DNA from: Escherichia coli
GTDB lineage: Bacteria; Pseudomonadota; Gammaproteobacteria; Enterobacterales; Enterobacteriaceae
Strand: one strand, 5' to 3'
NCBI RefSeq assembly: GCF_046105845.1
Contig: NZ_CP151004.1
Length of the DNA stretch: 64,000 nucleotides
The notes below the pieces were generated by a model. The model was not told the origin of the DNA, made no database searches, and saw only the letters and a program-made list of their open reading frames with translations. Positions 37,790 to 49,418 of the stretch are shown here, piece by piece. Position numbers and translations under genes: made by a program. Position 1 is the first letter of the stretch, and each line of letters begins with the position of its first letter.

Positions 37790-38065
37790 CTATCGCACAG
37801 GATGAATAAGATAATTCGCCTTTGTCGAAAAAGGGGGCGTAATGTCTTCTGTGAGATTTAATGGTGGCGCATCTTCTCTCATCTTAAACAAAATCGCCTG
37901 TGATGGCTGAAGTTTTGTAGAGTGTGTGGTCGTCATCGCTGACGTTTTTTCCGTCTCTTTATAGCTCGCCTCACTACCACCACCAGAAATAGAAAATGCA
38001 AAAACATTGCATGCCATAATAGAGACCAATAAAAATAAGCTAAAAAGCATTAAGTTTACTTTCAT
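37790..38065 (-). CDS. ypdI: Putative small secreted/lipoprotein YpdI
   Basis: 91-aa ORF with signal peptide and lipobox-like MAC motif. Confidence 0.7.
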   Translation of the reverse strand: MKVNLMLFSLFLLVSIMACNVFAFSISGGGSEASYKETEKTSAMTTTHSTKLQPSQAILFKMREDAPPLNLTEDITPPFSTKANYLIHPVR

Positions 38066-38207: not shown

Positions 38208-38225
38208 TTCCTACAATTGTAAGAC
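38208..38225. promoter_or_regulatory. EvgA box-like 18-bp inverted repeat upstream of yfdX
   Basis: TTCCTACAATTGTAAGAC; half-sites match TTCPyTACA 9/9 and 8/9. Confidence 0.55.
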
Positions 38226-38360
38226 TAAAATACTTCTTGCGATAATAACTACAACTGTAAGATAACCCTTTCAAAATGACCGTTGCTCTCTGATTTCTCA
38301 TTTCATACTCACCCAATATGATGGCGGCGTTTTCTAAAACTGTTAAAGAATGAGGTAAGT

Positions 38361-38993
38361 ATGAAACGTTTAATTATGGCTACGATGGTCACAGCAATTC
38401 TGGCATCTTCAACTGTATGGGCGGCTGATAATGCACCGGTAGCGGCACAACAGCAAACTCAGCAAGTTCAGCAAACCCAGAAAACGGCAGCAGCAGAGCG
38501 TATCTCTGAACAAGGTTTATATGCGATGCGTGACGTGCAGGTAGCGCGCCTGGCTCTGTTTCATGGCGATCCGGAAAAGGCAAAAGAACTGACCAATGAA
38601 GCTTCAGCTTTGTTGTCAGATGACAGTACCGAATGGGCAAAGTTCGCTAAGCCAGGTAAAAAAACCAATGTCAATGATGACCAATATATTGTCATTAATG
38701 CATCTATCGGAATTTCTGAGAGTTATGTAGCGACACCCGAAAAAGAAGCCGCGATAAAAATTGCCAACGAAAAAATGGCGAAAGGGGATAAAAAGGGCGC
38801 AATGGAAGAGCTTCGCCTGGCCGGTGTTGGCGTAATGGAAAACCAATATCTGATGCCGCTCAAACAGACTCGTAATGCACTTGCTGATGCGCAGAAACTG
38901 CTTGATAAAAAGCAATACTACGAGGCAAACCTGGCGCTTAAAGGTGCGGAAGATGGAATCATCGTCGATAGCGAAGCACTGTTTGTGAACTAA
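38361..38993 (+). CDS. yfdX: YfdX family periplasmic protein
   Basis: 210-aa ORF with signal peptide [21 protein letters not shown]. Confidence 0.85.
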
Positions 38994-39045
38994 TGCTGAC
39001 AGGCAGTATATTGAGGTAAAGGATTTAACTCCCTCCAGCCGACAA

Positions 39046-39086
39046 TTTTTTATGACCACAATACGACAGATTGTGGTCATAAAATT
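39046..39086. terminator. Bidirectional rho-independent terminator downstream of yfdX
   Basis: Perfect 11-bp stem atgaccacaat-acgacag-attgtggtcat flanked by T-run and A-run. Confidence 0.7.
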
Positions 39087-39236
39087 ATTTGGCGCTCGCG
39101 GTTCTATAAACTCGCATTTTATCTTCCTCAAAGTAAACCGCAATAATCCCGTGTCATCACAAATCATTTATTATGTTATGTTTTATGGTACGCTTTAAAA
39201 AGCGTAATCATACCCTTACTTGTAAATCACCGGCGC

Positions 39237-39254
39237 TTCTTACAGTTGTAAGAA
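39237..39254. promoter_or_regulatory. Near-perfect EvgA box upstream of frc
   Basis: TTCTTACAGTTGTAAGAA; 18-bp inverted repeat of two TTCPyTACA half-sites (8/9 and 9/9). Confidence 0.6.
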
Positions 39255-39505
39255 TAACATCACAAATGTCGCGGCTCTCTCTGATTACCGCGAACCAATA
39301 TTTATCATATTCTTCTTTTCGTCCTCACTACTTACCATGCAGAAAGGAATTGGAAGTGGCGATGAAATGATTTTCAGCACTTGATACAGGAATTTAAAAA
39401 TATCGAGTGCAGCTACGACGATATTTTGCGGATTATTTATAGAGGGCGTTATGCCTTAAATAAACGCTAAATTAACATATATTTAATTAACTAATAGGTA
39501 TTGCT

Positions 39506-40756
39506 ATGTCAACTCCACTTCAAGGAATTAAAGTTCTCGATTTCACCGGTGTGCAATCTGGCCCATCTTGTACTCAAATGCTGGCCTGGTTTGGCGCTGA
39601 CGTCATTAAAATTGAACGTCCCGGCGTTGGTGACGTAACGCGTCACCAGCTGCGAGATATTCCTGATATCGATGCGCTTTACTTCACCATGCTTAACAGT
39701 AACAAACGTTCTATTGAATTAAATACCAAAACAGCGGAAGGCAAAGAGGTAATGGAAAAGCTGATCCGCGAAGCTGATATCTTAGTCGAGAACTTTCATC
39801 CTGGGGCCATTGATCACATGGGCTTCACCTGGGAGCATATTCAAGAAATCAATCCACGTCTGATTTTTGGTTCGATCAAAGGGTTTGATGAGTGTTCGCC
39901 TTATGTGAATGTAAAAGCCTATGAAAACGTTGCTCAGGCAGCGGGTGGCGCGGCATCCACTACGGGTTTTTGGGACGGTCCGCCGCTGGTAAGCGCTGCA
40001 GCGTTGGGTGACAGCAACACCGGAATGCATTTACTGATCGGTTTACTTGCTGCTTTGCTGCATCGCGAAAAAACGGGGCGTGGGCAACGAGTCACCATGT
40101 CAATGCAGGATGCCGTATTGAACCTTTGCCGCGTGAAATTACGCGACCAGCAGCGTCTCGATAAATTGGGTTATCTGGAAGAATACCCGCAGTATCCGAA
40201 TGGCACATTTGGTGATGCAGTTCCCCGCGGAGGTAATGCGGGTGGTGGCGGTCAGCCTGGCTGGATCCTGAAATGTAAAGGCTGGGAAACCGATCCTAAC
40301 GCCTATATTTATTTCACTATTCAGGAGCAAAACTGGGAAAACACCTGTAAAGCCATCGGCAAACCAGATTGGATTACCGATCCGGCATACAGTACAGCCC
40401 ATGCCCGACAGCCACATATTTTCGATATTTTTGCTGAAATCGAAAAATACACTGTCACTATTGATAAACATGAAGCGGTGGCCTATTTGACTCAGTTTGA
40501 TATTCCTTGTGCACCGGTTTTAAGTATGAAAGAAATTTCACTTGATCCCTCTTTGCGCCAAAGTGGCAGTGTTGTTGAAGTGGAACAACCGTTGCGTGGA
40601 AAATATCTGACAGTTGGTTGTCCAATGAAATTCTCTGCCTTTACGCCGGATATTAAAGCTGCGCCGCTATTAGGTGAACATACCGCTGCTGTATTGCAGG
40701 AGCTGGGTTATAGCGACGATGAAATTGCTGCAATGAAGCAAAACCACGCCATCTGA
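39506..40756 (+). CDS. frc: Formyl-CoA:oxalate CoA-transferase (class III CoA transferase)
   Basis: 416-aa [49 protein letters not shown]... recognised as Frc. Confidence 0.9.
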
Positions 40757-40809: not shown

Positions 40810-42504
40810 ATGTCAGATCAACTTCAAATGACAGATGGTATGCATATCATCGTTGAAGCATTAAAACAGAATGATATTGACACTATTTATGGTGTTGTAG
40901 GTATTCCTGTGACGGATATGGCACGCCATGCCCAGGCGGAAGGCATTCGTTATATTGGTTTTCGTCATGAGCAGTCGGCAGGCTATGCCGCTGCGGCAAG
41001 CGGTTTTCTTACCCAAAAACCGGGGATCTGCCTGACAGTTTCTGCGCCAGGATTCCTCAATGGTTTGACCGCATTGGCCAATGCAACGGTAAATGGTTTT
41101 CCGATGATCATGATTAGCGGCTCCAGCGACCGCGCGATCGTCGACCTACAGCAAGGTGATTATGAAGAGCTGGACCAAATGAATGCGGCAAAACCGTATG
41201 CCAAAGCAGCATTCCGCGTTAATCAGCCGCAGGATCTTGGCATTGCATTGGCACGCGCTATCCGGGTCTCAGTATCGGGTCGCCCTGGCGGAGTTTATCT
41301 TGATTTACCAGCAAATGTCCTGGCCGCGACGATGGAAAAAGACGAAGCGTTAACCACGATTGTAAAAGTTGAAAATCCGTCGCCAGCATTATTGCCATGC
41401 CCGAAGTCAGTCACTAGCGCAATTTCGCTTTTAGCAAAAGCTGAACGTCCATTAGTTATCCTTGGCAAAGGCGCGGCGTATTCACAAGCGGATGAACAGC
41501 TTCGTGAATTTATTGAAAGTGCCCAGATTCCATTCCTGCCAATGTCTATGGCGAAAGGGATCCTCGAAGATACACATCCACTTTCTGCGGCAACTGCGCG
41601 TTCGTTTGCCCTGGCAAATGCTGACGTTGTCATGCTTGTTGGTGCACGACTGAATTGGTTACTGGCACACGGTAAAAAAGGATGGGCGGCAGATACACAG
41701 TTTATTCAACTGGATATTGAACCGCAGGAAATTGACAGCAACCGCCCCATTGCTGTGCCAGTCGTTGGCGATATTGCATCCAGTATGCAAGATATGCTGG
41801 CAGAACTGAAAAAAAACACATTTACGACTCCACTGGTATGGCGCGATATTTTAAATATCCACAAGCAGCAAAATGCACAAAAAATGCATGAAAAATTAAG
41901 TACAGATACTCAACCATTAAATTACTTTAATGCATTAAGTGCTGTGCGCGATGTATTGCGCGAGAACCAGGATATTTATTTAGTTAATGAAGGTGCAAAT
42001 ACCCTGGATAATGCACGAAATATTATTGATATGTATAAACCACGTCGCCGTCTGGATTGTGGTACCTGGGGTGTCATGGGCATCGGTATGGGCTATGCCA
42101 TCGGTGCTAGCGTGACCTCTGGTTCTCCGGTTGTCGCCATTGAAGGTGATAGTGCTTTTGGTTTCAGTGGGATGGAGATTGAAACGATTTGTCGATATAA
42201 CCTGCCGGTGACGGTCGTTATTTTTAATAATGGCGGCATCTACAGAGGAGACGGTGTTGATCTCAGTGGCGCTGGTGCACCATCACCAACAGATCTATTG
42301 CACCATGCAAGGTATGACAAATTAATGGATGCGTTTCGTGGCGTTGGCTATAACGTCACTACGACAGATGAACTTCGTCATGCTTTAACCACCGGTATTC
42401 AGTCGCGCAAACCGACCATTATTAATGTGGTCATCGACCCTGCAGCAGGAACTGAAAGTGGCCATATTACCAAACTTAACCCAAAACAAGTCGCTGGTAA
42501 TTAA
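40810..42504 (+). CDS. oxc: Oxalyl-CoA decarboxylase (ThDP-dependent)
   Basis: 564-aa ORF with ThDP-binding [14 protein letters not shown]...NNGG region. Confidence 0.9.
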
Positions 42505-42572: not shown

Positions 42573-43517
42573 ATGCTAACATTTTTTATTGGCGATTTAT
42601 TGCCTATTATCGTAATCATGCTGTTGGGTTATTTTAGCGGCAGACGAGAAACTTTTTCAGAAGATCAAGCCCGGGCATTTAATAAACTGGTATTAAACTA
42701 CGCTCTTCCTGCGGCCCTATTTGTTTCTATTACCCGGGCAAATAGGGAAATGATTTTTGCGGACACTCGCCTGACCCTTGTATCACTTGTGGTTATTGTC
42801 GGATGTTTCTTTTTCTCCTGGTTTGGTTGCTACAAATTTTTTAAACGTACTCATGCAGAAGCAGCAGTATGTGCATTAATTGCAGGTTCACCTACCATCG
42901 GATTCCTGGGATTTGCAGTTCTCGATCCTATTTATGGTGATTCCGTATCAACAGGTTTAGTTGTAGCAATTATTTCTATTATTGTTAACGCAATTACTAT
43001 TCCTATTGGTCTGTATTTGCTGAATCCTTCCTCAGGAGCAGATGGTAAGAAGAATAGTAATCTGAGCGCATTAATTTCTGCGGCAAAGGAGCCAGTAGTA
43101 TGGGCACCTGTTCTGGCAACGATCCTGGTGTTGGTTGGGGTAAAAATTCCGGCAGCATGGGACCCAACCTTTAATCTGATTGCGAAGGCTAACTCAGGGG
43201 TAGCGGTATTCGCTGCGGGGTTGACTCTGGCTGCACATAAATTCGAGTTCAGTGCTGAAATTGCTTATAACACCTTCCTGAAGCTGATTCTGATGCCACT
43301 GGTGCTGCTTCTCGTGGGTATGGCATGTCATTTGAACAGCGAACATTTGCAGATGATGGTACTGGCAGGCGCCTTACCGCCGGCATTCTCCGGAATCATT
43401 ATTGCCAGCCGGTTTAATGTCTACACCCGCACTGGTACAGCATCATTGGCTGTGAGCGTACTGGGCTTTGTCGTCACGGCTCCTTTGTGGATTTATGTCA
43501 GTCGACTGGTTTCATAA
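42573..43517 (+). CDS. yfdV: AEC (auxin efflux carrier) family membrane transporter
   Basis: 314-aa polytopic membrane ORF in the frc-oxc cluster. Confidence 0.8.
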
Positions 43518-43590
43518 TTAATCATGTTATTGATTTTACATAAATGCCGAAGTGTCTTTTCACCTTCGGCTTTTTTCAAGGCATAAGCAA

Positions 43591-44736
43591 ATGACAAATA
43601 ATGAATGCAAAGGGCCGTTTGAAGGCTTATTAGTTATCGATATGACACATGTCCTTAATGGACCTTTCGGAACTCAACTTCTTTGTAATATGGGCGCAAG
43701 GGTAATTAAAGTTGAGCCGCCGGGCCATGGTGATGATACCCGCACATTTGGTCCCTATGTGGATGGACAGTCACTCTATTACAGTTTTATTAATCATGGC
43801 AAAGAGAGTGTGGTTCTTGATTTAAAGAATGATCACGATAAAAGTATATTTATAAATATGCTTAAACAAGCTGATGTATTAGCTGAGAATTTTCGCCCTG
43901 GTACAATGGAAAAACTGGGGTTTTCATGGGAAACGCTACAAGAAATCAACCCGCGTCTCATATATGCTTCATCGTCAGGTTTTGGGCATACCGGCCCGCT
44001 AAAAGATGCTCCTGCCTACGATACCATCATTCAGGCAATGAGCGGGATAATGATGGAAACGGGATACCCTGATGCTCCGCCAGTTCGCGTGGGTACCTCT
44101 CTTGCGGATTTATGTGGCGGTGTCTATTTATTCAGTGGAATAGTGAGTGCACTTTATGGCCGCGAAAAGAGCCAACGAGGGGCGCATGTCGATATAGCGA
44201 TGTTTGATGCCACTCTGAGTTTTCTGGAGCACGGACTGATGGCATATATCGCGACTGGGAAGTCACCACAACGTCTGGGAAATCGTCACCCCTACATGGC
44301 ACCTTTTGATGTTTTCGATACTCAGGATAAGCCGATTACGATTTGTTGTGGTAATGACAAGCTTTTTTCTGCGTTATGTCAGGCACTGGATCTGACGGAG
44401 CTGGTTGATGATCCCCGATTTATCAGCAATATTTTACGCGTACAAAACCAGGCTATTCTTAAACAATATATTGAGCGGACGTTAAAAACACAGGCAGCTG
44501 AAGTTTGGTTAGCCAGAATACATGAAGTTGGTGTACCCGTAGCGCCGTTATTAAGTGTGGCTGAGGCCATTAATTTGCCACAAACTCAGGCGAGAAATAT
44601 GTTGATTGAAGCCGGGGGAATAATGATGCCGGGTAATCCGATAAAAATCAGCGGCTGCGCGGACCCGCATGTTATGCCGGGAGCGGCAACGCTCGACCAG
44701 CATGGGGAACAAATTCGCCAGGAATTCTCATCGTAA
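43591..44736 (+). CDS. yfdE: Acetyl-CoA:oxalate CoA-transferase (class III CoA transferase, Frc paralog); start taken at MTNNECKG
   Basis: Paralogous to frc in this window (LVIDMTHVLNGPFGTQLL...). Confidence 0.85.
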   Translation: MTNNECKGPFEGLLVIDMTHVLNGPFGTQLLCNMGARVIKVEPPGHGDDTRTFGPYVDGQSLYYSFINHGKESVVLDLKNDHDKSIFINMLKQADVLAENFRPGTMEKLGFSWETLQEINPRLIYASSSGFGHTGPLKDAPAYDTIIQAMSGIMMETGYPDAPPVRVGTSLADLCGGVYLFSGIVSALYGREKSQRGAHVDIAMFDATLSFLEHGLMAYIATGKSPQRLGNRHPYMAPFDVFDTQDKPITICCGNDKLFSALCQALDLTELVDDPRFISNILRVQNQAILKQYIERTLKTQAAEVWLARIHEVGVPVAPLLSVAEAINLPQTQARNMLIEAGGIMMPGNPIKISGCADPHVMPGAATLDQHGEQIRQEFSS

Positions 44737-44790: not shown

Positions 44791-47700
44791 TTAGTCATTT
44801 TGTTGACAGAAAACAGCAATCTCCTGGTCTAACTCTGCAATGTGTTCTTTAACAGAGTTCAGCAACTTAAGAATTTCAGGCTTGCTGTCATCTGAAACGG
44901 GCGTTATTTCTAACTGATGGCTAAGATTAATCAACTTTTGCAAATTCAGGATGTTAGCCGCACCGTGGATGCGATGAATACACTGATGGAAAATTCTGTT
45001 GTCGCCAGCTTCTAGTGCATGAAACGCAGCGGGTAGATCTTTATGCGTTTCATGCTGGAAAGTCATGAGAATCTCCTGCATCAGTTGTAGATCGTTCGCC
45101 GTATTATTTTTCAGGGCCTCGATATCAAGGTGGCGATACTGAGGTGCAATATGCGCAACCTGGTGTAACTGACTTAAATGTGTTTTCAGTACATCCAGGG
45201 TCAACGGTTTGAACAAACATAAGTTCATGCCGCAATTTAACCCTTTTTCACGTTCGTTAGCCTGTGCGTTGGCTGTAAGCCCCCAGATAGGTAAGGAAGA
45301 ATTTTGCTCACGGAGTTTGCGAGTCAACTCAAAACCATCCATATTCGGCATATTAACGTCAGTAATAAGCAGATCATAATGTTGCATACTGACTTTGTGT
45401 AGCGCTTGCACACCATCAGTGGCTTCATCAACATCATATCCTAATAGGTTTAGCTGGCGTTTGAGTAATAGCCTGTTGGTCGGATGATCATCCGCGATTA
45501 ATATACTCAACTTTTCAGGGAGTGTCATAGGTTGTTCTGCTTTTGCCTCGACAGTCGCCACTTGTTGGGTAATTTCTACCGGGATTGTGATCGTAAATGT
45601 CGTTCCTATGCCTGGATGACTTTCTAATGACAAATCGCCCTGCATGTTTTTAATTAATTCTTTGCAGATCATTAAGCCTAAACCAGAACCTGTTTGCTGA
45701 CGACCTGCACTTGTTTGGCTATAGCGTTTAAACAGTTGTTGTTGTTCTTCCTGCGATAATCCACTTCCAGAATCCATAATCGTCATTTTGATAACAGCGT
45801 GGTTGTCATCAATGTCACCCAGGGAGGTCGTAATTTTTACTGCCCCCTCGGTGGTAAATTTGAGAGCATTGCTCAGTAAATTAGATAAGACCTGCTTAAA
45901 CGCCTGAGGGTCGATCTTAACCTGGTAATGTTCAGGAAACGTACTGCTGCAACTTAATGCGATGGATTTGCTTGCAGCAATCGCACCGAAAGAGTGACAA
46001 GTGTTCTGGACTAAAGTAGGGATATCGACCCATTGTGGTTGAAGTTGATAGTTACCCGACTCAATTTTGTCGACATCAAGGATTTCACCAATTAAGCCGA
46101 GGAGTGATTGTCCGGTGGCGTAGGCAAGTGAAATCGCCTCCACCCGTTGCTCCTTGCTAAGACCAGAACCCGACAAAAGTTCCAGGAAGCCCATAATGGA
46201 GCTTATTGGTGTTCTTATTTCGTGACTCATTGTTGCCAGAAACTGGCTTTTTGCGACAGTTGCATTGATCGCTTTATTTCTCTCTACTTCGAGTGCATGA
46301 ATTAAATCACGCGTCTCGGTAATATCTTGCCAACCACAAATATAAACAGCATGATCGCTGGCTGGCAGATTGCATAATGTATGCCAGTGATTAATGCATC
46401 TTTTCTCGATGCCATTATCAATTTCAAATACCTGTGTGTATATTGTTCGATTTTCTTTCGTTTCTGCTGTGACTTCATGCGCATTAGAAAAAACATCTTT
46501 AAAGGGTGAGTCACTGTTTTCTAATGGTAACATTGCATTTTTGTAGTAATCCGCAGTGAAATAATGTTCAAAAGCACTATTATGACTAATGACATTACCT
46601 TGCCAGTTTACAACATAAGTTGGATTCGGTAAGGAATCCGAGAGTGCTTTTCGGAATGATATTTGGTTTTCTAAATCACCCTGAATGACTTTACGACGAC
46701 GAACTGAGCGTAACAGGTAGAATCCCCATAAAAGGCTACTGCCAACTAATAAAACGGATAATGTCGTGACAATATAAAATTGCTCGCTATAGAGGTCCCA
46801 TGTGTCAATGGTCACATTGGGCATTTTAATCCATTTTTCCGTCAGGCGCAGAACTTCGCTTGGGGGAATTGCATTCAGTGCTTTATTAATAATATCCTTA
46901 AGTTCCGGTTCTCCGCGAGGAAAAGCGAACGAAAGCGATGCATTCTGAACGCCGGGAATAAGAAAATGATAAAGTTCATTAGGATAGTAATGGTCGATCA
47001 TGTAACGCGAATTTAGCTGTGTCGCGACCAGAGCATCAAGTTCACCTTCTTTAACCTTGTGAAATGCAGCGCTGGCATTATCGACTTTTATCCACTCTAC
47101 CTCCGGATACATCTCTTTTAATTGCGAATGAAGCTCATAATAATATGGAATGGCAACTTTCATTCCTTTTTTTAATGTTTGTTCACTGTCAGGCGCTTTT
47201 TGCATGACAAAAACGTAAGGCGTTGTTATGAAGGCTTCAGCAAATGAAACATTATTTTCTCGATCTTCACTATAAATAGCGGCGGGCAATATATCCCATC
47301 CACCGGGATTAAGCTGTGTCCCCGCATGAATATTGTGTGAAACGGTGATCGGAGAAAAATTTAAACCTGTTTGCAAGGTAATAATATTAAGAATATCACC
47401 CATCACGCCCCGAACTGAGCCAGTTTCATCTGTCATAGAATAGGGTGGCGAGTAAGGATTTTCCAGCACCTTTAAATCGGGATGCTGCTTAATCCACTGT
47501 TTTTCATGTTCAGTGAGTTCTAATGGTTTGTTCAGAAAGGCCAGGTTTCCTGTATCAAGCCAATTTTGTGATACTTCATAGCGAACTTCATTTGTTAAAG
47601 CATCAACAAATCGATTGAGTACTTCATTAAGAACGACTGAATCTTTTCTGGTTAAGAAAAAGTTATATTGACGCGGCGAGTTATAATATTTCACTACATT

Positions 47701-48384
47701 TAAGGAGTGAGTGAAATAGCGGGAAATCATACTGCTGGTAATAATGTTACTACCAATAAAGTAATCATTCTGTCCGGCTGAGACGGATGCTAATGCCTGA
47801 TATAAATTTGTAAAAGAGATAATTGTTGCTTTTGGAAATGATTGATGAATTACCTCATCTGGAGGGTAATTTGCTACCCGAGCAATATTTACTGGTTTTG
47901 ATGAGGTAAGCGGTCTCATTGAATCGTGAAGGGTGGTGACCAGCGCCGGAAAGGTAATTATCAGCGGTTTGGTTGCAGCAATGTCATCATTAAGAGGCGG
48001 CGAAGCAACTAAATGTGATAACACTATATCGACTTCCCCTTCTGTAAGCGCGTCCATTGCTTTTTGATGATCTGCGTATTCCCGGAGTGTTAATTTGATA
48101 TTTAACGCTCTTTTTAAAAGATTTAAATAATCAGCATTAATACCACGAACCCGTTGCTGCGAATCGGTATGCAACAAAGTAGCCGTTTGGGACTTGTGTA
48201 CTGCAATCACAAGATTTTTTTTGCTCGCTAACCAACGTAATTCCTTGTTGCTCAGACGTAGTGGATCAAGCGTGACACGGTTGTTACTACTGATGCCACG
48301 ATATTCGATGTAATCTTCGTCTGCGAAAATTATGGTCGACCAAAGACCACAACAGAGAAGAATAATATAGGGTAAAAACTTCAT
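44791..48384 (-). CDS. evgS: Hybrid sensor histidine kinase EvgS (two periplasmic solute-binding-like domains, HisKA/ATPase, receiver, HPt)
   Basis: 1197-aa ORF with H-box (ATMSHEIRTPISSIMGFLELL), receiver (LIADDHPTNR) and C-terminal HPt. Confidence 0.95.
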   Translation of the reverse strand: MKFLPYIILLCCGLWSTIIFADEDYIEYRGISSNNRVTLDPLRLSNKELRWLASKKNLVIAVHKSQTATLLHTDSQQRVRGINADYLNLLKRALNIKLTLREYADHQKAMDALTEGEVDIVLSHLVASPPLNDDIAATKPLIITFPALVTTLHDSMRPLTSSKPVNIARVANYPPDEVIHQSFPKATIISFTNLYQALASVSAGQNDYFIGSNIITSSMISRYFTHSLNVVKYYNSPRQYNFFLTRKDSVVLNEVLNRFVDALTNEVRYEVSQNWLDTGNLAFLNKPLELTEHEKQWIKQHPDLKVLENPYSPPYSMTDETGSVRGVMGDILNIITLQTGLNFSPITVSHNIHAGTQLNPGGWDILPAAIYSEDRENNVSFAEAFITTPYVFVMQKAPDSEQTLKKGMKVAIPYYYELHSQLKEMYPEVEWIKVDNASAAFHKVKEGELDALVATQLNSRYMIDHYYPNELYHFLIPGVQNASLSFAFPRGEPELKDIINKALNAIPPSEVLRLTEKWIKMPNVTIDTWDLYSEQFYIVTTLSVLLVGSSLLWGFYLLRSVRRRKVIQGDLENQISFRKALSDSLPNPTYVVNWQGNVISHNSAFEHYFTADYYKNAMLPLENSDSPFKDVFSNAHEVTAETKENRTIYTQVFEIDNGIEKRCINHWHTLCNLPASDHAVYICGWQDITETRDLIHALEVERNKAINATVAKSQFLATMSHEIRTPISSIMGFLELLSGSGLSKEQRVEAISLAYATGQSLLGLIGEILDVDKIESGNYQLQPQWVDIPTLVQNTCHSFGAIAASKSIALSCSSTFPEHYQVKIDPQAFKQVLSNLLSNALKFTTEGAVKITTSLGDIDDNHAVIKMTIMDSGSGLSQEEQQQLFKRYSQTSAGRQQTGSGLGLMICKELIKNMQGDLSLESHPGIGTTFTITIPVEITQQVATVEAKAEQPMTLPEKLSILIADDHPTNRLLLKRQLNLLGYDVDEATDGVQALHKVSMQHYDLLITDVNMPNMDGFELTRKLREQNSSLPIWGLTANAQANEREKGLNCGMNLCLFKPLTLDVLKTHLSQLHQVAHIAPQYRHLDIEALKNNTANDLQLMQEILMTFQHETHKDLPAAFHALEAGDNRIFHQCIHRIHGAANILNLQKLINLSHQLEITPVSDDSKPEILKLLNSVKEHIAELDQEIAVFCQQND

Positions 48385-48388
48385 GTGG

Positions 48389-49003
48389 TTAGCCGATTTT
48401 GTTACGTTGTGCGAATGTGTAAAGATCCATCAGTGATTTACATTCTAATTTTTCCATCAGGCGACTTTTATAAGTGCTGACAGTTTTGTTGCTGATGAAC
48501 ATTTTTTCCGCAATATCATTATTATCCTTGCCATCAAGAATATATCGCATGACACTAATTTCTTGTTTCGATAAGGAGTCGAGTTTTTGCTGGTCGGACG
48601 TTAAACTTCCAACAAACCGGTTGAGAGAGAAGGGGAAATAGCAGTAGCCATTTTTTGCAGCTTCAATAGCCGCAATGATATTGTTCATGCCTTCTTTTTT
48701 ACTCACGAATCCATTAGCGCCAGCATCAGCACAATGTTTCCCGTAAAAATGGTCATTTTTAGCGGAGACGATAATAATAATTCCGCTATATTGGCGCTTC
48801 CTCAGCGTTTCTAACACCTGGATACCGTTAACTCCGGGGATATCGACATCAATGATGACGATATCAGGTTTAAGTGTTTCCACCCGCTGAACGGCACTTC
48901 CCCCTTCAGTCAACTCCGCTAAGATTTCAATATCGTTTTTGATCAATAAATTACGAATTGCTGCGATAGCAAGAGGATGGTCATCAATAATTATTGCGTT
49001 CAT
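48389..49003 (-). CDS. evgA: Response regulator EvgA (receiver + LuxR-type HTH)
   Basis: 204-aa ORF MNAIIIDDHPLAIAAIRNLL...; operon with evgS. Confidence 0.95.
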   Translation of the reverse strand: MNAIIIDDHPLAIAAIRNLLIKNDIEILAELTEGGSAVQRVETLKPDIVIIDVDIPGVNGIQVLETLRKRQYSGIIIIVSAKNDHFYGKHCADAGANGFVSKKEGMNNIIAAIEAAKNGYCYFPFSLNRFVGSLTSDQQKLDSLSKQEISVMRYILDGKDNNDIAEKMFISNKTVSTYKSRLMEKLECKSLMDLYTFAQRNKIG

Positions 49004-49227: not shown

Positions 49228-49245
49228 ATCCTACATGCGTAAGAA
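49228..49245. promoter_or_regulatory. EvgA box-like inverted repeat in the evgA-emrK divergent promoter region
   Basis: ATCCTACATGCGTAAGAA; half-sites match TTCPyTACA 7/9 each. Confidence 0.45.
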
Positions 49246-49418
49246 TTGTATTGCAAAAGCCACGGTTTAGTCCTCTGTTGTTTTTTTTGCACCTCATTTA
49301 AATTAGGCCTCCAACGTTCCTGGGATAATGTGCAACACATGCACTGTGTTTGATATGAAGAATGAATAATCATTTCATTCAATTCATAAATTTCATCTAT
49401 GCGAAATGAGAGATAATA

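Follow-up and report, generated by a model that had tools for sequence, protein, structure and literature searches.

Whether the oxalate genes frc-oxc-yfdV-yfdE of Escherichia coli are read only from a transcript initiated at yfdX, or can also be driven by the response regulator EvgA from a promoter of their own, is the question raised by this locus. That EvgA governs both yfdX and frc-oxc-yfdVE through 18-bp inverted repeats was published as early as 2003. The operators of the EvgA regulon were reportedly defined as such repeats by Masuda and Church in 2003, and by Itou, Eguchi and Utsumi in 2009.

Expression of yfdX, frc, oxc, yfdV, yfdE and emrKY rises when EvgA is overproduced, when EvgS is constitutively active and at low pH. 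In evgS-constitutive mutants, frc and oxc were among the most induced genes, and EvgA sites were found at already known targets only (Johnson et al. 2014). Papers that cite Kato et al. (2000) credit that study with showing that EvgA binds the emrKY promoter directly. In the literature frc is also called yfdW, and some papers write of a 'yfdXWUVE operon'. In contrast, the legend of Fig. 2 in Mullins et al. describes two EvgA-bound repeats, one for yfdX and one for yfdWUVE, with separate induction. Published accounts differ as to which is induced more strongly, yfdX or frc/oxc. According to the summary of earlier qRT-PCR in Saha et al. (2016), induction of yfdX greatly exceeded that of yfdWUVE, whereas yfdX, frc, oxc and yfdV were induced similarly at low pH in Schumacher et al. 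(2023).

Since it is already published that EvgA controls yfdX and frc-oxc-yfdV-yfdE separately, we regard the regulation as textbook knowledge and claim no discovery. The additions made here are modest: a second yfdX box, a population footprint, a common promoter architecture and a 38-bp duplication. Two details are also corrected: the number of yfdX boxes, which is two, and the nature of the hairpin behind yfdX, which is not bidirectional.

Organization of the yfd-evg region

The window (the whole 64-kb stretch of DNA analysed here) is part of the E. coli chromosome and runs in the opposite direction to K-12 MG1655. It comes from a strain other than K-12, with 56 differences counted over about 2 kb; the locus of the boxes is about 97% identical. 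yfdX (38361-38993, + strand) encodes 210 aa and was identified by NCBIfam PRK10316 and Pfam YfdX. Upstream of it lies ypdI (37790-38065, − strand). Downstream, all on the + strand, are frc (39506-40756, formyl-CoA transferase) and oxc (40810-42504, oxalyl-CoA decarboxylase), both assigned by NCBIfam and Pfam, then yfdV (42573-43517) and yfdE (ORF 43552-44736, with a start near 43591 going by the K-12 length).

The sensor kinase gene evgS (44791-48384, − strand) adjoins evgA (48389-49003, − strand), whose product is the response regulator acting on the boxes. This product matched the NCBIfam equivalog EvgA with 437.9 bits (cut-off 251) and contains the Pfam domains Response_reg and GerE/LuxR helix-turn-helix. 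emrK/emrY start from 49419 on the + strand. The cognate EvgS/EvgA pair is therefore encoded in the same window as the boxes. The GC content is 32-36% in the spacers and about 40-47% in the cluster, which suggests an acquired, H-NS-prone island.

The yfdX coding sequence of the window is one GCG codon shorter than that of K-12 (at 38489, within a codon repeat; K-12 has 3 nt more). Its length varies in other strains too, from 624 to 636 nt.

Four EvgA boxes lie in the window

The whole 64-kb window was scanned with the motif TTCYTACA-NN-TGTARGAA, written as TTCYTACANNTGTARGAA, with up to 3 mismatches allowed. Four matches were obtained against 0.78 expected, and four were reached in none of 100 shuffles. 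All four fell in EvgA-relevant spacers.

Three of these matches had been proposed in an earlier note made on this DNA, and all three were recovered at exactly the positions given there. The inverted repeat upstream of yfdX, TTCCTACAATTGTAAGAC (38208-38225), has 1 mismatch and a predicted centre at about −87.5. The repeat in the yfdX-frc spacer, TTCTTACAGTTGTAAGAA (39237-39254), had been called near-perfect and is in fact a perfect palindrome with 0 mismatches. The third, weaker repeat, ATCCTACATGCGTAAGAA (49228-49245, 2 mismatches), lies in the divergent evgA-emrK spacer, 173 nt ahead of the emrK start codon. The fourth match, TAACTACAACTGTAAGAT (38246-38263), was absent from that list. It is located 38 bp downstream of the first yfdX box and carries 3 mismatches, all at outer bases. 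We refer to these two as the distal and proximal yfdX boxes. Both boxes listed for the oxalate cluster thus stand, but their number rises from two to three. The frc box had also been described as the stronger one. It is indeed the best match to the motif, but a perfect palindrome does not prove a stronger output, and the reports on induction conflict.

The three yfd boxes (two for yfdX, one for frc) are identical in K-12, and the emrK box of the window differs from that of K-12 by one central base. In K-12 the motif was also found upstream of safA (1 mismatch), ydeP (2), yegR (1) and emrK (2). Compared with the operators of the K-12 EvgA regulon, locus and motif are the same and nothing essential differs; the window simply comes from a non-K-12 strain.

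The emrK-evgA box is polymorphic. In K-12 it reads ATCCTACAGGCGTAAGAA (L001 5514-5531), with 2 mismatches as in the window, and in strain SCPM-O-B-8794 it reads TTCCTACAGGTGTAAGAA (L005 19729-19746), with 0 mismatches. A further K-12 match with 2 mismatches, TTCTTACGCATGAAAGAA, lies inside mdtE (L004 5887-5904); it is intragenic and was judged to be probably a chance match. mdtEF belongs to the acid-resistance island.

The boxes are conserved within E. coli

Among the 80 frc loci listed from a scan of 100,044 species, one was from Escherichia, and further Escherichia loci may exist. With up to 2 mismatches, the motif occurred at 3 sites in this one E. coli locus and at none in the other 1.47 Mb of the 1.49 Mb covered by the listed loci. 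The closest non-Escherichia Frc proteins among those listed were from Moellerella and Providencia (86% amino acid identity). Cross-species footprinting was therefore impossible, and diversity within E. coli was used instead.

In Moellerella wisconsensis (L006) and Providencia stuartii (L007), frc is followed by an oxc-sized ORF and EvgA boxes were absent. By ORF layout, the neighbours of these frc genes are unlike yfdX and evgAS, both in their sizes and in how they are arranged.

Fifteen E. coli sequences were compared: 12 RefSeq genomes with identities of 96-99%, plus the window, K-12 and the divergent strain L005. None of the 36 core half-site columns (CTACA and TGTAAGA in the three yfd boxes) was variable, against 22.4% of the non-coding columns (P = 8.5e-5, a value that treats alignment columns as independent despite the relatedness of the strains). 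At the same time, 4 of the 6 central NN columns were variable. Variation in the distal yfdX box was limited to a central N and the last base. In the proximal box the core CTACA..TGTAAGA was invariant and both central bases varied, and the interval between the two yfdX boxes was highly variable. Fixed half-sites around a free centre are what the EvgA consensus predicts, and this is true of the proximal yfdX box as well.

Conservation extends beyond the boxes on their gene-proximal side. The stretch 39247-39267 was invariant in the 15 sequences, and so were 38285-38306 and 38308-38325 in the yfdX promoter region. In the larger set of complete genomes, the 33-mer 39236-39268, which consists of the frc box with 14 nt, was identical in 5403 of 5426, and the 33-mers adjoining it on either side were identical in 2610 and 1520 of them. 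This population-level footprint indicates sites under strong selection. Taken with the motif matches, the boxes look like genuine, strongly conserved and functional EvgA sites.

A hairpin separates yfdX from the frc box

The spacer between yfdX and frc measures 512 nt (38994-39505); the earlier note had recognized the spacer and counted 513 bp. It contains a conserved hairpin of 15 pairs (39048-39084, + strand; −25.8 kcal/mol, z = −6.9), which is the probable intrinsic terminator of yfdX. The hairpin lies 55 nt past the yfdX stop codon and about 150 nt ahead of the frc box. Its tail on the + strand is TTATTTGG, with 5 U in 8 (UUAUUUGG). A stable stem-loop followed by a U-run, as in an intrinsic terminator, was thus found on the + strand, with a tail of only 5 U in 8.

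The hairpin had been described as a strong bidirectional terminator at 39046-39086. The hairpin itself is there, with its stem at 39048-39084, but it was called as a terminator on the + strand only. The terminator scan of the − strand did not call it, the − strand tail after the stem is AAUUGUCGG without a U-run, and both flanking genes lie on the + strand, so that none converges on it. For these reasons 'bidirectional' is unsupported, and because only 5 of 8 tail positions are U, 'strong' is generous for a terminator.

A compensatory change is seen in the stem. In strains L090 and L092 an A>G change in the 5' arm is matched by a T>C change in the 3' arm, and the arms ATGGCCAC...GTGGCCAT replace ATGACCAC...GTGGTCAT. 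An Rfam scan of the 512-nt spacer gave no family at gathering score, and the lone match, a microRNA family far below threshold, was the hairpin itself. With the A at 39070, the stem in the window is one pair longer than in K-12, where this position is G.

This order of terminator, conserved operator and promoter is consistent with yfdX and frc-oxc-yfdVE being separate units. The arrangement resembles that of internal promoters in nominal operons, where a hairpin with a U-rich tail, here after yfdX, precedes a downstream promoter of its own.

Genomic SELEX has placed a peak of RNA polymerase holoenzyme in the H-NS-flagged yfdX-frc spacer, and assigned to frc a 'constitutive' promoter, TTTATA-18-AATAAT, located upstream of the EvgA box (Shimada et al. 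2014). This K-12 hexamer pair corresponds to 39118-39147 of the window. Its first hexamer reads TTTATC here, because position 39123 is C where K-12 has A.

EvgA-box promoters share elements at fixed distances

Six promoters were anchored at the gene-proximal end of the box, namely frc, yfdX (proximal box), emrK, safA, ydeP and yegR. All six have CA at +9/+10 and TCYKATTW at +26 to +33. The latter element is TCTGATTA in frc, TCTGATTT at the proximal yfdX box, TCCTATTT in safA, TCTTATTT in ydeP, TCCTATTC in yegR and TCCTCTGT in emrK. The information content of these fixed-distance elements was matched by none of 2000 random-offset controls. The TCYKATTW 8-mer was not enriched across the window as a whole.

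The frc and proximal yfdX promoters are especially alike. They carry an identical 10-mer, CTCTCTGATT, at equal offset, and both have TCTGATT at +26. A free local alignment of the two promoters gave a marginal result, its score being reached by 65 of 2000 shuffles; the fixed-distance comparison, not the free local alignment, is the meaningful test of their likeness. The distal yfdX box lacks the fixed-distance elements, as expected of an upstream auxiliary site. By the placement of these elements, it is the proximal yfdX box, and not the distal one, that corresponds in position to the frc box.

From these elements we predicted a −35 at +5 to +10, a −10 at +29 to +34 and a transcription start near +41 after the box. 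The box would then span about −58 to −41, with its centre near −49.5, and would abut a weak −35; we give this exact geometry roughly even odds. The predicted yfdX core promoter (38268-38297, + strand) consists of a −35-like CTTTCA (38268-38273) and a −10-like GATTTC (38292-38297), which overlaps the shared element TCTGATTT (38289-38296), with a predicted start near 38304. A consensus scan offered TTCTCA-16-TATGAT (38295-38322, TATGAT at 38317-38322) as an alternative. For frc, the predicted core promoter (39259-39288, + strand) combines a −35-like ATCACA (39259-39264) and a −10-like GATTAC (39283-39288), the latter overlapping the shared element TCTGATTA (39280-39287). Its start is predicted near 39295, with a leader of about 211 nt, and the alternative −10 is TATCAT (39303-39308). 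The emrK start is predicted near 49286.

GATTAC and GATTTC match TATAAT poorly, and better hexamers lie 15-25 nt downstream. The start sites of frc and yfdX and the −49.5 geometry are uncertain for this reason; geometry and start sites form a testable prediction.

LuxR at the lux box, a palindrome centred at −42.5, is one example of LuxR/NarL-type activators that abut or overlap the −35. EvgA resembles these activators in its dimeric GerE/LuxR helix-turn-helix, its inverted repeat in the range of 18-20 bp and its predicted place beside a weak −35. Unlike the lux box, the centre at −49.5 is a prediction from sequence, and yfdX has an extra box 38 bp upstream.

The presumed frc leader also contains a block, 39307-39370, that is highly conserved even in the divergent L005, with invariant runs at 39307-39323 and 39334-39357. 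It holds a 15-codon ORF (39337-39384, MQKGIGSGDEMIFST) without an obvious ribosome-binding site. The fold of the leader (39295-39520) was weakly better than that of shuffles (z = −2.2). A 65-aa ORF (39173-39370) running over the frc box was ruled out as coding, since a 1-nt indel falls within it in L005.

A probable independent frc promoter and its alternatives

We consider functional EvgA sites together with an independent frc promoter as the best explanation of these data, with a probability of roughly 0.88. In this model, mildly acidic pH would lead EvgS to phosphorylate EvgA, a response regulator of the NarL/LuxR type. An EvgA dimer would bind each 18-bp inverted repeat and activate the weak promoter just downstream. 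The yfd cluster would contain at least two EvgA-dependent units. The first would be yfdX, served by the proximal (38246-38263) and distal (38208-38225) boxes and ending at the hairpin 39048-39084. The second would be frc-oxc-yfdV-yfdE, started from a separate promoter just downstream of the perfect box (39237-39254). emrKY would use the box in the divergent evgA-emrK spacer. A box position abutting the weak −35 would let EvgA act next to RNA polymerase, and the AT-rich spacers with their H-NS flags suggest that relief of silencing contributes.

The earlier note had argued that frc-oxc-yfdV-yfdE can be driven by EvgA apart from yfdX. This view is supported: it agrees with the legend of Fig. 2 in Mullins et al., and it fits the conservation of the frc box, the hairpin between yfdX and the box, the fixed-distance elements and the RNA polymerase peak (Shimada et al. 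2014). Independent initiation at frc is supported by that published statement together with what we infer here.

A single transcript initiated at yfdX, which would make yfdXWUVE a true operon and leave the frc box auxiliary or vestigial (for example as an anchor for looping or anti-silencing), is improbable. Several papers do use the operon name, low pH induces all the genes about equally, and the imperfect U-tract after the hairpin makes some read-through plausible. However, the frc box with the next 13 nt is the most conserved stretch of the spacer around the box, and it is followed by the same fixed-distance elements as in five other EvgA promoters. The conserved hairpin with its compensatory substitution stands between yfdX and the frc box, RNA polymerase binds the spacer in vitro (Shimada et al. 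2014), and the literature also has separate induction of yfdX and yfdWUVE, with differing induction ratios. Far less probable still, to the point of being negligible, is that the palindromes arose by chance or serve another LuxR/NarL-type regulator. EvgA shares its helix-turn-helix family with RcsB, NarL/NarP, UvrY and FimZ. Chance is excluded by the window scan (4 matches against 0.78, 0/100 shuffles). As for another regulator, the promoters that carry the 18-bp motif are exactly those for which direct control by EvgA has been reported, variation is confined to positions that are free in the EvgA consensus, and among the listed frc loci the motif is missing where this gene neighbourhood is missing.

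A more serious possibility, though still a minority view, is that EvgA acts mainly as an H-NS counter-silencer on an AT-rich acquired island and not through contact with RNA polymerase. In that case the fixed-distance elements would stem from common promoter ancestry, not from a fixed activation geometry, and the identical 10-mer of the frc and yfdX promoters could be paralogy. The low GC of spacers (32-36%) and cluster (about 40-47%) is in line with this, and so are the genomic-SELEX flags for H-NS at the frc and emrK/evgA spacers and the binding of the spacer by RNA polymerase alone (Shimada et al. 2014). On the other side, the spacing is kept within a base pair at six promoters from four separate chromosomal loci, which is what contact between protein and polymerase would select for. 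Counter-silencing is also a variant of the independent frc promoter driven by EvgA, and compatible with it.

The number of yfdX boxes varies between strains

Most strains have two yfdX boxes. In strain Res13-Lact-PEB01-20 (L088 246-335), a 38-bp tandem duplication has created a third, hybrid box, TAACTACAATTGTAAGAC; it corresponds to an insertion at about 38225/38246 of the window. The third box apparently arose by unequal recombination between the boxes. More tentatively, and with odds somewhat against it, the yfdX boxes may form an array with 38-bp spacing and strain-variable number, combined with one rigid EvgA-promoter geometry (centre about −49.5) in which the weaker proximal box is the activating one. 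If this is true, box number could tune the strength of the yfdX response to EvgA in each lineage, and the polymorphism could explain strain differences in YfdX expression. The duplication junction occurred in 414 of the 5426 complete E. coli genomes (7.6%), and a few of these had more than one copy of it.
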